Part shown: one piece after another, positions 10,601 through 61,723 of the stretch | Position numbering within the stretch: position 1 is the first letter of the stretch | Layout of the letters: every line of letters begins with the position of its first letter | Source of the DNA: Escherichia coli | Lineage (GTDB): Bacteria > Pseudomonadota > Gammaproteobacteria > Enterobacterales > Enterobacteriaceae | Direction: 5' to 3' (one strand) | Assembly (NCBI RefSeq): GCF_001677475.2 | Contig: NZ_CP015229.1 | Length of the DNA: 64,000 nt | Program-made: the position numbers and the translations under genes | The notes under the pieces: model-generated | What the model was told of the DNA's origin: nothing | The model's database searches: none | What the model saw: only the letters and a program-made list of their open reading frames with translations

Positions 10601-10690
10601 GCCTGATGCGCTACGCTTATCAGGCCTACAAAACCTGTTGAAAATATTGCTTTTGTAGGCCGGATAAGGCGTTCACGCCGCATCCGGCAT
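10601..10690. repeat. REP pair (BIME) downstream of hemN
   Basis: gcctgatgcgctacgcttatcaggcctac and gtaggccggataaggcgttcacgccgcatccggcat. Confidence 0.75.
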
Positions 10691-10722
10691 GAACAAAGAG
10701 CACTTCATCAGCAATCTGAAAC

Positions 10723-10833
10723 TCAACTAAACAGCCCAATCATCGCGGCACACAGCACGGCAGCAACGGCAGTTTGCGGTGTGTGGCTGTCAACTGCGCC
10801 ACTCGATACCAGATTAATTATTGATTCCAGCAT
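10723..10833 (-). CDS. yshB: Small membrane protein YshB (36 aa)
   Basis: My own minus-strand translation gives MLESIINLVSSGAVDSHTPQTAVAAVLCAAMIGLFS; too short for the ORF track. Confidence 0.6.
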   Translation of the reverse strand: MLESIINLVSSGAVDSHTPQTAVAAVLCAAMIGLFS

Positions 10834-10944
10834 AATGACTCTCCCCGTTTTCCGGGCAAGATCATACTGAACTTATCGGAACAGTAAAGCGCAAAATACC
10901 AGCAATTTGCGCTCAATAATCAATCTTTACACACAAGCCGTGAA

Positions 10945-12354
10945 TCACTCCATCCCCAGCTCTTTTAACTTCCGCGTCAGAGTGTTACGCCCCCAGCCGA
11001 GTAGCCGCGCCGCTTCCTGTTTATGTCCTTGCGTATATCGCAACGCGGTCGTCAGTAACGTCCGCTCCAGCTCAGGCTGCGCTTCGGAAAGCAGATTTTG
11101 ATGACCGGAACGCAGCGCCCTGTCTGCCCACTGCGCTAACAGCGTCGCCCAACTGTCCGGTTGCATTTGCGAAGTACTCTCCGCAACCGTTGATTCAAAC
11201 AGTTCACCGGGCAAATCCTGAATCAACACTTCCTGCCCGGCGGCCATCACCGTTAGCCAGCGGCAGGTGTTTTCCAGCTGGCGCACGTTGCCTGGCCACG
11301 CCAGACGCGTCAGAGCAGCTTCGGTTTCCGGATGCAGCAACTTCGCTTCTACGCCCAGTTCACGCGCGGCAACCTGTAAAAAATGGCGCGCCAGACGGGG
11401 AATATCTTCCCGACGTTCGCGCAGCGGCGGCAGATGAACGCGGATAACGTTCAGGCGGTGGAACAGATCCTCACGGAACTTGCCTTCCTGCACCCGCTGT
11501 TCAAGATTCTGGTGAGTGGCAGCGATAATCCGCACATCTACTTTCACCGGCGCATAGCCGCCAACGCGATAAAACTGACCATCTGCCAGTACGCGCAGCA
11601 AACGCGTCTGCACATCCAGCGGCATATCGCCAATTTCATCGAGGAATAATGTACCGCCATCAGCCTGTTCAAAACGCCCCTGACGAATGGTATTCGCGCC
11701 GGTAAACGCGCCTTTCTCGTGGCCAAACAGTTCTGATTCGATCAAATCTTTTGGGATAGCTGCCATATTCAGCGCGATAAACGGCGCTTTGGCGCGCGGA
11801 CTGTGGCGATGCAGGGCATGAGCGACCAGTTCTTTACCGGTACCGGATTCGCCGTTAATCAGCACGCTAATAGAAGAACGCGAAAGCCGACCGATAATAC
11901 GGAACACGTCCTGCATGGCTGGCGCTTCGCCGATGATATCGGTCGTTGGGCCGTTAAGCTGAACATTACGCGGCTGCTGCTGTTCCTGATAATGGCTGAT
12001 GGCGCGCTCAACCAGCGCCACGGCTTCGTCGATATCAAACGGTTTGGGCAGATAATCAAACGCCCCTTGTTGATAGGCGCTGACGGCAGCATCCAGATCG
12101 GAATGTGCGGTCATGATGATGACCGGAAGCATCGGATGGCGCTGTTTAATCTGCTTGAGCAGTGCCAGTCCGTCCATTCCCGGCATACGGATATCTGAAA
12201 GCAGCACATCCGGCGTTTTGCTCGCCAGCGCCTCCAGTACCTCCGCGCCGTTCTCAAATGTCGTACAGGTTAAACCCGCTCCAGCGAGCGCACGTTCAAG
12301 CACCCAACGGATGGAACTATCGTCATCGACTACCCAGACTATCCCTCGTTGCAT
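10945..12354 (-). CDS. glnG: Nitrogen regulation response regulator NtrC (sigma54 activator)
   Basis: 469 aa from ATG at 12354 ([12 protein letters not shown]...); receiver domain, AAA+ GESGTGKE, C-terminal HTH. Confidence 0.95.
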
Positions 12355-12365
12355 AAACGTCACCT

Positions 12366-13415
12366 TTATTTCCTGATAGGCAGGTAAACCGAGAACTCGG
12401 TATGCCCTGGCCAACTGGTAAATTCAATTTTGCCTGAATGCTGATCAATCAAATTACGAGCGATGGATAAGCCAAGCCCGGTGCCACCTTCGCGGCCGCT
12501 GACCATCGGGTAAAACAGCGTATCCTGCAAATGAGGCGGAATGCCCGGCCCGTTATCTTCCACATCAATCCGCGCCGCCAGCCGGTAGCGCTCGCCGTGT
12601 AAGGTCAGTTGAAACGCGGTGCGGGTACGCAGAATGATTTCACCGCCTTCCGGCCCCAGCGCCTGTAGCGCATTGCGCACAATATTCAGGAGCACTTGCT
12701 CAATTTGATCCGGGTCGTGCGCCAGTTCCGGCAGGCTGGGGTCGTAATCACGAATCAACCGCACGTTGTCCGGCAGTTCCATCGACACCAGCGTCACCAC
12801 ACGTTCAGCCACTTTATGAATACTTTCGGTAACGCGCGTACCGGGCAGCTGCGGCCCCAACAGACGGTCGACCAGATTTCGCAGCCGGTCCGCCTGTTCG
12901 ATAATCACTTTGGTATATTCGAGTAGTGACGGGTCAGGTAATGCTTTGCTGAGTAGCTGCGCCGCGCCCCGTAAACCGCCAAGCGGATTTTTAATCTCAT
13001 GTGCCAGGCCGCGCACTAAATCACGGGCAGCAACCTGCTGGGCGTGCTGTAGCTGTTCCTGACTTAAGCGGCGCTGGTTATCCATCGGTGCCATCTCCAG
13101 CAGGATCATGCCGTCCGGCATACGCTGGGCCGTCACAGAAAGGATATGCGAACGCCCGTCGATGACCAGCGTCACTTCGTTATCGGTAAAACCTTGCCCC
13201 GCCTCCAGACTTTCTTGCATCAGCTCGATATTTAATGAGAAGTAGCTCAACAGTTCCGGTAACGGCGTACCAAACAATTTGCGGGAGCTTTGGGCGAGCA
13301 GTTGTTGCGCGGCGGGGTTGGCGTAATGGATCGCCAGGTTGTCATCGATTAACAAAATACTGTTAATCAGCGAGTTGAGGATCTGCCCAGCATCGGGCTG
13401 CGTGCCTGTTGCCAT
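12366..13415 (-). CDS. glnL: Nitrogen regulation sensor histidine kinase NtrB
   Basis: 349 aa; PAS region plus HisKA/HATPase motifs. Confidence 0.95.
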
Positions 13416-13480
13416 AAAGCAGTCTCCTGAACAGGTTGCACCATTTTAGTGCATTATAGCTTTTTACGGATAAAAAGCGC
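13416..13480 (-). promoter_or_regulatory. glnL promoter with overlapping NtrC site
   Basis: Minus strand reads agctataatgcactaaaatggtgcaa: -10-like TATAAT and NtrC-like TGCACTAAAATGGTGCA. Confidence 0.5.
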
Positions 13481-59379: not shown

Positions 59380-59440
59380 CTGTTTTCCTTGCCATAGACA
59401 CCATCCCTGTCTTCCCCCACATGATGTGGGGGTTTTTTTT
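59380..59440 (+). ncRNA. cpxQ: cpxP 3'UTR with terminator; candidate CpxQ sRNA
   Basis: 3'UTR ending in cccccacatgatgtggggg followed by T8; assigned by position and terminator only. Confidence 0.5.
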
Positions 59441-59521
59441 ATCCTCAATTTGCCTGCTGCTTAATGCATTGCAGATGATTTGCTTCCGTTATACTAGCGT
59501 CAGTTGATAGCGGGAGTATTT

Positions 59522-60424
59522 ATGAATCAATCTTATGGACGGCTGGTCAGTCGGGCGGCGATTGCTGCGACGGCGATGGCTTCGCTGCTATTGCTGATTA
59601 AAATTTTTGCATGGTGGTATACCGGGTCGGTGAGTATTCTCGCCGCGCTGGTGGATTCGCTGGTGGATATCGGCGCGTCGTTGACGAATTTACTGGTGGT
59701 GCGATATTCCCTGCAACCTGCCGACGATAATCACTCGTTTGGTCACGGTAAAGCTGAGTCCCTCGCGGCGCTGGCGCAAAGTATGTTTATCTCCGGTTCA
59801 GCACTATTCCTGTTTTTGACGGGTATTCAACATCTGATATCTCCAACACCGATGACAGATCCAGGCGTCGGGGTTATCGTGACAATTGTGGCGCTAATTT
59901 GTACGATTATCCTTGTCTCGTTTCAGCGTTGGGTGGTGCGCCGGACGCAAAGCCAGGCGGTGCGGGCTGATATGCTACATTACCAGTCTGATGTTATGAT
60001 GAACGGCGCAATTCTGCTGGCGCTGGGGTTGTCCTGGTACGGCTGGCATCGCGCCGATGCTCTGTTTGCATTGGGAATCGGCATCTATATTTTATATAGC
60101 GCGTTACGCATGGGATATGAGGCGGTACAGTCATTACTGGATCGCGCATTGCCTGATGAGGAACGGCAAGAAATTATTGATATCGTGACTTCCTGGCCGG
60201 GTGTTAGCGGCGCTCACGATCTTCGCACGCGGCAGTCAGGGCCGACCCGCTTTATTCAGATTCATTTGGAAATGGAAGACTCTCTGCCTTTGGTTCAGGC
60301 ACATATGGTGGCGGATCAGGTAGAGCAGGCTATTTTACGGCGTTTTCCGGGATCGGATGTGATTATCCATCAGGACCCCTGTTCCGTCGTACCCAGGGAG
60401 GGTAAACGGTCTATGCTTTCATAA
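59522..60424 (+). CDS. fieF: Cation-diffusion-facilitator Fe/Zn efflux protein FieF (YiiP)
   Basis: 300 aa from ATG at 59522 ([17 protein letters not shown]...). Confidence 0.95.
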
Positions 60425-60604
60425 TCAGTATAAAAGAGAGCCAGACCCGCATTTTGTGTATAAAATACCGCCATTTGGCCTGACCTGAATCAATTCAGCA
60501 GGAAGTGATTGTTATACTATTTGCACATTCGTTGGATCACTTCGATGTGTAAGAAGACTTCCGGCAACAGATTTCATTTTGCATTCCAAAGTTCAGAGGT
60601 AGTC

Positions 60605-61567
60605 ATGATTAAGAAAATCGGTGTGTTGACAAGCGGCGGTGATGCGCCAGGCATGAACGCCGCAATTCGCGGGGTTGTTCGTTCTGCGCTGACAGAAGGT
60701 CTGGAAGTAATGGGCATTTATGACGGCTATCTGGGTCTGTATGAAGACCGTATGGTACAGCTAGACCGTTACAGCGTTTCTGACATGATCAACCGTGGCG
60801 GTACGTTTCTCGGTTCTGCGCGTTTCCCGGAATTCCGCGACGAGAACATCCGCGCCGTGGCTATCGAAAACCTGAAAAAACGTGGTATCGACGCGCTGGT
60901 GGTTATCGGCGGTGACGGTTCCTACATGGGTGCAATGCGTCTGACCGAAATGGGCTTCCCGTGCATCGGCCTGCCGGGCACTATCGACAACGATATCAAA
61001 GGCACTGACTACACTATCGGTTTCTTCACTGCGCTGAGCACCGTTGTAGAAGCGATCGACCGTCTGCGTGACACCTCTTCTTCTCACCAGCGTATTTCCG
61101 TGGTGGAAGTGATGGGCCGTTATTGTGGCGATCTGACGTTGGCTGCGGCCATTGCCGGTGGCTGTGAATTCGTTGTGGTTCCGGAAGTTGAATTCAGCCG
61201 TGAAGACCTGGTAAACGAAATCAAAGCGGGTATCGCGAAAGGTAAAAAACACGCGATCGTGGCGATTACCGAACATATGTGTGATGTTGACGAACTGGCG
61301 CATTTCATCGAGAAAGAAACCGGTCGTGAAACCCGCGCAACTGTGCTGGGCCACATCCAGCGCGGTGGTTCTCCGGTGCCTTACGACCGTATTCTGGCTT
61401 CCCGTATGGGCGCTTACGCTATCGATCTGCTGCTGGCAGGTTACGGCGGTCGTTGCGTAGGTATCCAGAACGAACAGCTGGTTCACCACGACATCATCGA
61501 CGCTATCGAAAACATGAAGCGTCCGTTCAAAGGCGACTGGCTGGACTGCGCGAAAAAACTGTATTAA
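60605..61567 (+). CDS. pfkA: 6-phosphofructokinase I
   Basis: 320 aa from ATG at 60605 ([23 protein letters not shown]...); ORF track start 60509 rejected. Confidence 0.97.
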
Positions 61568-61623
61568 TGATTTCGGAAAAAGGCAGATTCCTTTAGCCTG
61601 AAACCGATGACAGAAGCAAAAAT

Positions 61624-61723
61624 GCCTGATGCGCTTCGCTTATCAGGCCTACATGAATTCTGCAATTTATTGAATTTGCGAACTTTTGTAGGCCGGATAA
61701 GGCGTTCGCGCCGCATCCGGCAT
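61624..61723. repeat. REP pair (BIME) between pfkA and sbp
   Basis: gcctgatgcgcttcgcttatcaggcctac and gtaggccggataaggcgttcgcgccgcatccggcat. Confidence 0.75.

Follow-up and report, generated by a model that had tools for sequence, protein, structure and literature searches.

REP elements in a 64-kb Escherichia coli region: absence from three variable segments is no more than chance would give

Repetitive extragenic palindromic (REP) elements and the bacterial interspersed mosaic elements (BIMEs) that they form were mapped in a 64-kb stretch of the Escherichia coli chromosome (64,000 nt of contig NZ_CP015229.1; hereafter the window), together with their absence from three segments that are variable relative to MG1655: an alternative yih-like cluster (segment 1), the fabY-fdhE island (segment 2) and an frv-remnant/porin segment (segment 3). 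Five loci, hemN/yshB, yiiG/frvR', rhaA/rhaD, yiiM/cpxA and pfkA/sbp, carry eight canonical REP units between them, an occurrence far beyond chance, while none of the scans, on either strand, placed a REP within any of the three segments. The absence is real, but it is no more than chance would give. It is very probable that the elements of the window are unremarkable representatives of the REP (palindromic unit) family of E. coli, present as singletons or as BIME-1-like or BIME-2-like pairs, and that small numbers and lack of room best account for their absence from the segments. A REP-free stretch of 2.5-8.6 kb carries essentially no information on the history of a segment.

A sequence-only reading of the window had placed REP-type palindromes after hemN, near engB (yihA), after yiiG, between rhaA and rhaD, after yiiM and after pfkA. 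All six sites do carry one, the engB site in degenerate form; the interval given for them, 10601-61723, holds for the other named sites, while the engB element falls outside it. Missed were two short REP-like hairpins, after yihN and, beyond that interval, between cdh and tpiA, and possibly a remnant after sodA. The same reading had seen no REP in the three segments, and this stood up to a systematic scan of both strands, which returned noise-level matches only.

Search for REP units

Both strands of the window were scanned by several independent approaches, and the consensus, arm, covariance-model, Rfam and de novo searches agreed. A strict regular expression of the Stern consensus, allowing substitutions only, found 6 of 9 units; because it is blind to the short y type, an arm scan and a covariance model were used instead. 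Scanning for the two 7-nt stem arms GCCKGAT...ATCMGGC gave 11 exact matches in the window against 0 in 50 shuffles. The covariance model, R1, was trained on 23 REP units from other strains and loci and run with filters off, so that the units of the window were not matched by construction. The eight canonical units scored 42-64 bits (E 4e-8 to 2.5e-13), which together with matches to the Stern consensus assigns them to the y, z1 and z2 classes; below the decayed y unit of the spf/yihA gap (E 0.0015) the remaining scores were noise (E≥0.06). Rfam, searched at gathering and permissive thresholds, gave matches to naRNA4 and ES036. As the annotation of NC_000913.3 has no REP features, the REPs of MG1655 were called de novo. 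Gene names were carried over from annotated relatives and MG1655, and synteny was mapped by BLAST.

Repeat finding without a supplied consensus returned REP/BIME as the only dispersed repeat families in the window. BLAST queries bearing REPs likewise hit a median of at least 36 and at least 17 places per genome, against 1-2 for the three variable segments. A BIME-1 query with an E-value cut-off hit only ~4 places per genome, which makes it unfit for counting all REPs, and it served only for the contrast between chromosomes and plasmids given below.

These results bear on the possibility that the segments hold diverged or other palindromic families which the y/z consensus misses. Broad definitions yield more than 4,000 'REPs' in MG1655 (PMC12306157), and the segments do contain hairpins: a perfect 42-nt palindrome with a 19-bp stem lies between the two major facilitator superfamily (MFS) transporter genes of segment 1, and a further hairpin lies in segment 3. 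However, the de novo search and the 1-2 BLAST places per segment both speak against such a family, and the 42-nt palindrome, which lacks GTAG, was ruled out as a novel dispersed repeat since it is confined to one locus in the 1328 genomes that match it. The simplest explanation for the second BLAST place of the yih-like cluster is that this palindrome matches itself on both strands. A detection artefact of this kind is thus very improbable.

Canonical and decayed units

All eight canonical units read NGTAGGC..., are 31-39 nt long and form imperfect palindromes, with predicted folds of a 7-bp foot stem, a 2×2 internal mismatch and an inner stem of 3-6 bp (-12.9 to -21.4 kcal/mol). They lie only in convergent or same-direction gaps, 5-67 nt past a stop codon. 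These are the defining features of E. coli REPs, whose 2×2 mismatch is required for binding of TnpA_REP (PMC3333891). Coordinates and scores are collected in Table 1.

Table 1. REP units, REP-like sequences, variable segments and other features of the window. Unit coordinates follow the GTAG-first reading, and the strand is the one on which the unit reads so. Bit scores and E values are those of R1 unless another source is named.
Feature	Position	Strand	Score and predicted fold	Remarks
hemN/yshB, y unit	10600-10630	-	49.3 bits, E 7.7e-10; -12.9 kcal/mol	stem begins 67 nt past the hemN stop on the hemN mRNA strand
hemN/yshB, linker	10631-10653			23 nt
hemN/yshB, z1 unit	10654-10689	+	62.4 bits, E 5.4e-13	
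hemN/yshB, outer flank of z1	10690-10719			30 nt, conserved
yiiG/frvR', z-type singleton	44047-44082	-	42.0 bits, E 4.2e-8; -19.9 kcal/mol	29 nt past the yiiG stop
rhaA/rhaD, z2-type singleton	47735-47770	+	62.7 bits, E 4.6e-13	stem 5 nt past the rhaA stop, 43 nt upstream of rhaD
yiiM/cpxA, long y unit	56559-56597	+	53.7 bits	
yiiM/cpxA, z unit	56609-56644	-	58.7 bits	
pfkA/sbp, BIME-1	61623-61752			y, L linker, z1 and conserved flank
pfkA/sbp, y unit	61623-61653	-	50.4 bits	
pfkA/sbp, L linker	61654-61686			33 nt
pfkA/sbp, putative IHF-like site	61663-61675			ATTCAATAAATTG, one mismatch to WATCAANNNNTTR
pfkA/sbp, z1 unit	61687-61722	+	63.8 bits	conserved flank to 61752
spf/yihA (engB), decayed BIME-1	7141-7232			
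spf/yihA, degenerate y unit	7147-7177	-	23.1 bits, E 0.0015	GTTG replaces GTAG
spf/yihA, L-like linker	7178-7202			
spf/yihA, z unit	7203-7229	+	14.2 bits, E 0.19	inner stem deleted
REP-like short hairpin after yihN	20627-20653	-	12.8 bits, E 0.42; -15.7 kcal/mol	GCCGGATGTGCTTAATCCGGCCAAC; 17 nt before the MG1655 synteny break
REP-like short hairpin, cdh/tpiA	63760-63784		12.6 bits, E 0.49; -16.0 kcal/mol	GCCGGATATGAAATCCGGC; convergent gap
Candidate REP inner-stem remnant after sodA	54502-54521	+	16.3 bits, E 0.061	GGCGTTTACGCCGCAT
Variable segment 1	20670-29312			yih-like sugar-utilisation cluster in place of K-12 ompL-csqR
Perfect palindrome, segment 1	26912-26953			42 nt
Variable segment 2	32266-36259			fabY-fdhE hotspot, ~40% GC; contains orf604, yiiE, yiiF and vapC
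orf604	32681-34495	+		604 codons
Insertion missing from MG1655, segment 2	32745-34793			2 kb
yiiF with vapC	35607-36223			overlapping genes
Intact vapC/PIN gene	35843-36223			
Direct repeats ATATCTGGAAAACGCCTCGCAAA	35053-35075, 35491-35513, 35741-35763			23 nt, three copies
Variable segment 3	44083-46543			frvR'-frvA' deletion remnant, then RafY-type carbohydrate porin gene
frvR 3' remnant	44108-44355			248 nt
Truncated frvA	44356-44632			fused to the frvR remnant
Porin gene	45109-46503		Porin_8, E 3e-154	no counterpart in K-12
Hairpin, segment 3	46510-46540			
glnA 3'UTR	13528-13722			GlnZ region

Two loci have the layout of BIME-1. At pfkA/sbp the y unit, L linker, z1 unit and conserved flank form a BIME-1, present at ≥80% coverage in 5375 of 5426 complete E. 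coli genomes; its linker matches Rfam ES036 (41.4 bits against a gathering threshold of 37.6) and holds a putative site resembling that of integration host factor (IHF), whereas candidate sites of this kind in the hemN linker have two mismatches at best. The y and z1 units of hemN/yshB form a BIME-1-like inverted pair, with a sub-threshold match to Rfam naRNA4 at the z1 unit, and its 70-nt copy of a family found de novo is 91% identical to the pfkA copy. BIME-2 features amount to one y unit, 11-nt linker and z unit at yiiM/cpxA and the lone z2 unit inside the rhaBAD operon; the window has no tandem array. At yiiM/cpxA, where the genes converge, each stem begins 15 nt past the respective stop, and the BIME-2-like pair matches naRNA4 with 78.6 bits (gathering threshold 59.5). 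The yiiG unit, in the junction gap adjoining the frvR remnant, has compensating changes in both arms (GTCGGAT / ATCCGAC), so that the hairpin stays intact.

The element of the spf/yihA gap is a decayed BIME-1. Its hairpins fold at -11.0 and -11.6 kcal/mol, and 7141-7202 aligns with the y unit and linker of hemN and pfkA in another of the families found de novo. The hairpin after yihN, an exact arm-motif match in spite of its low R1 score, is probably a z unit without its inner stem; that of the cdh/tpiA gap also matches the arm motif exactly and occupies the same site in MG1655. Whether the stretch after sodA is a REP remnant is uncertain; it is a possible one, with a partial match to R1 (model positions 11-30).

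The units agree with those known from E. coli in their sequence, the GTAG at the foot, the imperfect palindrome and the extragenic position 3' of genes. The inverted pairs, whose linker is long and of the L type at pfkA and hemN and short at yiiM/cpxA, also have known counterparts there, as has the variation of unit number among strains at one locus (as in PMC3333891). Nothing essential differs: the yiiG arms are compensated, the spf/yihA element is decayed and the yihN hairpin may be a relic. REPs and BIMEs at these loci are textbook E. coli features, with nothing new about them here.

Absence of REPs from the variable segments

The three segments are genuinely variable. Segment 1 has no synteny to MG1655, with the break at 20669, and is carried by 1385 of 5426 complete genomes; segments 2 and 3 are covered to ≥80% in 974 and 1377 of the 5426. 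Segments 2 and 3 are AT-rich (0.40-0.46 GC), while the GC content of segment 1 is normal. The best R1 matches inside the segments were 33487-33532 (E 0.62, in orf604), 22317-22344 (E 8) and 27618-27656 (E 8.6); segment 1 gave none below E 8, and segment 3 none at E≤10. I dismissed the matches at 33487-33532, 32027-32050 and 27618-27656 as noise within coding sequence, and also an arm-motif match at 22317-22343 in the coding sequence of the sugar kinase, whose arms are non-complementary (GCCTGAT...ATCCGGC) and whose R1 E value is 8.

A gap was counted as eligible if it was intergenic, at least 40 nt long and not divergent. REPs occupied 5 of the 22 eligible gaps of the backbone, 1 of 5 junction gaps (the yiiG REP) and 0 of the 4 gaps lying wholly inside variable segments, giving a p value of 0.56 by Fisher's exact test and of 0.30-0.64 with other groupings of the junction gaps. 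Six loci placed at random in the 64-kb window would leave the 15.1 kb of variable DNA empty with a probability of 0.20, and with the published genome-wide REP number the probability of finding no locus in 15.1 kb is 0.31-0.38. If REPs spread slowly and patchily, segments offering only four permissive gaps would often stay free of them. With so few eligible gaps and so little room, absence is expected irrespective of any recent import of the segments.

The other explanation to be weighed is that the segments are REP-free since they were acquired or exchanged more recently, while the resident REP-associated tyrosine transposase (RAYT) copies REPs only slowly within the genome. The principle has been published for Pseudomonas, where 'REP deserts' of ≥25 kb mark recently acquired DNA (PMC3390384), and REPINs (REP doublets mobilised by the RAYT) and RAYTs are reported to be vertically inherited with slow dynamics (PMC8049555). 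Here the segments occur in only 18-25% of complete genomes. The BIME-1 query hit 20,358 chromosomal but 10 plasmid places, a ~60-fold shortfall against the ~630 plasmid places expected at equal density, if plasmids make up ~3% of bases as I estimate. BIME-1 is also nearly absent from phage: among 50,697 phage records only 46 have a match, and several of those listed are host-derived DNA.

The prophages and islands of K-12 were examined in the same light, with CP4-6, Rac, the leuX island, Qin and CP4-57 as the comparison set (~140 kb of island and ~110 kb of flank). Roughly 9-11 REP loci would be expected in ~140 kb at the published genome-wide number (PMC3333891), and one was found. The flanks, however, held only two in ~110 kb, and the contrast was dropped as a clean test of depletion, the flanks being nearly REP-free as well. 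MG1655 1620001-1670000, for instance, has no REP in 50 kb, made up of Qin and the ordinary chromosome that flanks it on either side (29.5 kb). REP density in K-12 is strongly patchy. The single island locus, an inverted REP pair between mmuM and afuC (MG1655 277674-277742), lies inside the cryptic prophage CP4-6 and is a counter-example to the notion that acquired DNA is REP-free.

Further points speak against recent acquisition as the reason for the absence. The depletion in the window is non-significant, K-12 core flanks are equally empty in places, and of the three variable loci, two have REPs inside or at them in other strains. Among the six REP loci of the window, yiiG lies in a junction gap that borders on the frv remnant, and the GC content of segment 1 is ordinary. 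The logic of the deserts in the Pseudomonas fluorescens group is the same, namely that REP-free stretches coincide with strain-specific, compositionally atypical DNA, and segments 2 and 3 by GC, and the segments by their limited distribution, resemble these. But the deserts measure ≥25 kb in genomes with 500-1500 REPs, and the segments here measure 8.6, 4.0 and 2.5 kb in a genome with ~600, a scale at which a desert has no resolving power as a marker. I therefore regard recent acquisition as a possible but rather doubtful reason for the absence.

Some observations do not sit easily with small numbers and lack of room as a full account. The zero count runs in the direction that the sequence-only reading had predicted, plasmids, phage records and, weakly, K-12 prophages trend the same way, and two of the segments are compositionally atypical; young DNA that is still uncolonised may make a real contribution. 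The claim that the segments had a different evolutionary history is thus partly supported: they are variable, and the principle behind it is reasonable biology, plausible and already known. It is not demonstrable from this window, with none of four gaps occupied, a p value of 0.56 and REPs at the same loci in other strains. As a caution, at a scale of a few kilobases and with patchy density, the lack of REPs cannot call an island.

REP turnover between strains

The gaps in which REPs were found do belong to a shared gene order, as had been claimed, but to speak of a conserved backbone is misleading with respect to the REPs themselves: of the eight loci with canonical REPs in one strain or the other, six differ in REP content between the window and MG1655. 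Only yiiM/cpxA, with an identical y unit, and pfkA/sbp are unchanged. The y unit after hemN is decayed in MG1655, which has one extra unit there, but intact in the window; at rhaA/rhaD a single unit stands against a nine-unit BIME-2 array in MG1655 (14315-14718 of the fetched stretch L005). The window has one unit at yiiG, shared with strain EC974 (2047-2082 of the fetched stretch L003), and MG1655 none, only a short chimeric hairpin. Conversely, the window has no unit in the glnA 3' untranslated region (3'UTR) and MG1655 one, none between yiiF and fdhE and MG1655 two, and no canonical unit after yihN, where MG1655 has one at the yihN/ompL junction of its own yih cluster. REP occupancy is among the most strain-variable features of this 'backbone', a fast-changing layer even where synteny holds.

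The glnA 3'UTR, the region of the small RNA GlnZ, differs from that of K-12 more widely. About 190 nt of unrelated sequence separate the glnA stop from the conserved seed and terminator in the window, which lacks the REP of K-12 GlnZ class III. GlnZ classes, including the REP-bearing class III of K-12, have been described (bioRxiv 10.1101/2022.04.01.486790).

The gene after yiiF is found in three states: as an intact vapC in the window and in strain 2014C-3075, as a deleted pseudogene in two strains, and as a deleted pseudogene with a BIME-1 in MG1655 and D8. The internal deletion comprises ~213 nt in K-12 (MG1655, from 37150 of the fetched stretch L004 to 240 of L005), which leaves K-12 yiiF an orphan, and a ~155-nt BIME-1 (z1-L-y with flanks) was inserted a few codons into the pseudogene, near its 5' end, in MG1655 and D8. 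The two strains with the deletion but without the BIME give the order of events, with the deletion first and the BIME-1 second. Since D8 carries the same orf604 island together with the vapC BIME-1, REPs would turn up, if D8 were scanned, in the very island region that was described as free of them. In line with that description, no REP lies in the interior of the 12-kb yih cluster or the 5-kb frv operon of MG1655, nor in the hotspot cassettes of three further strains.

REPs beside several of these edges raise the question whether they promote cassette exchange, through shared short homology or TnpA_REP cleavage, in which case REPs at junctions would be the pattern. The yiiG REP adjoins the frv deletion and porin segment, the relic after yihN lies 17 nt from the break and is followed in MG1655 by a canonical REP, and the right edge of the fabY-fdhE hotspot carries a BIME-1 in MG1655 and D8. 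REP-containing indels at recombination junctions have also been reported around the O157 O-antigen locus, where REPs likewise vary among strains and lie at the edges of exchanged cassettes or next to them (PMC3158064). That link is explicitly speculative in the source, however, and here only three of six junction gaps are occupied, both strains counted, against 5 of 22 in the backbone, numbers so small that a significant excess is unlikely; two of the three resemble independent indels or insertions. The canonical REP of MG1655 lies 16 nt beyond the shared yihN hairpin, and its deletion restores ~8 nt of shared sequence, as judged by eye, which makes it look like a clean indel beside the true breakpoint. 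The vapC BIME-1 went into a pseudogene that had already suffered its deletion and does not mark a cassette boundary, and the junctions at 29313, 32266/32745 and 46543 are REP-free in both strains. A part for REPs in the exchange is accordingly unlikely, and it is quite improbable that cassette breakpoints at yih, fabY-fdhE and frv/porin fall at REPs beyond chance through TnpA_REP cleavage or recombination between REPs. For specialists in REPIN dynamics, the datable BIME-1 insertion in the K-12 vapC pseudogene and the REP indels beside cassette edges may be of use.

Predicted roles of the units

REPs have been assigned roles in protecting mRNA 3' ends, in attenuation, in the binding of gyrase, DNA polymerase I (Pol I) and IHF, and as targets of processing by TnpA_REP (PMC3333891). 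By analogy, the units of the window would serve as DNA substrates of the single-copy, domesticated TnpA_REP (a RAYT) and would be bound by gyrase, Pol I and, at the L linker of BIME-1, IHF, while their RNA hairpins may shield upstream mRNA from 3' exonucleases and attenuate read-through. A REP within ~15 nt of a stop codon is reported to be able to dampen translation of the upstream gene (PMC12306157); with stems 5, 15 and 15 nt away, the stops of rhaA, yiiM and cpxA are within this range, and an effect on them is predicted. The doublets, the decaying-looking singletons, the doublet cleanly inserted into vapC, a pseudogene in MG1655 and D8, and the near-absence from plasmids and phages also recall REPIN/RAYT systems, with the difference that the RAYT gene lies outside the window and the link to it is presumed.

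Gene content of the window

The window covers the chromosome between srkA/dsbA and tpiA, oriented as in MG1655 (~4.043-4.111 Mb), and its best match among 5,426 complete E. coli genomes is ~98.7% identical. Over the four stretches of 20-25 kb that were tested, the best matches reached 97.5-98.8% and no complete genome exceeded ~99%; either the source lineage is sparsely represented among complete genomes or the region is a recombination mosaic.

By Pfam and NCBIfam matches, segment 1 encodes a DeoR regulator, a sugar kinase, a YihU-like reductase, an aldolase, a zinc-dependent alcohol dehydrogenase, two MFS transporters and an aldose epimerase. The fusion of frvR and frvA remnants in segment 3 corresponds to the loss of 4.2 kb of frvR-frvX-frvB. 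The frv remnants (44108-44781) are 88-91% identical to K-12, against ~98% for adjacent genes, and other strains have the full frv operon together with the porin gene, or the porin gene directly beside a damaged yiiG.

Within the 40%-GC insertion between fabY and yiiE in segment 2, orf604 had zero matches in Pfam, NCBIfam, PADLOC, PHROGs and PDB sequences, and related genomes have it split by PGAP into a 'hypothetical, incomplete' gene and a 'transposase'. It contains a P-loop of the CX5R(T) type, 'GCKSAKDRT', which fits the signature of inositol-polyphosphate-4-phosphatase and IpgD-SopB. This motif probably lies behind the earlier wording of a 'phosphatase island', a label that no profile library confirmed, the CX5R-type motif being all that is visible of it. 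Downstream, yiiF, which encodes a ribbon-helix-helix (RHH) domain, overlaps the intact PIN-domain vapC gene in the window, giving a complete VapBC-like pair. The direct repeat ATATCTGGAAAACGCCTCGCAAA lies ~117 nt upstream of yiiE and of yiiF, with a third copy within yiiF; as both genes encode an RHH domain, the repeats probably represent either an operator or upstream regions that are paralogous.

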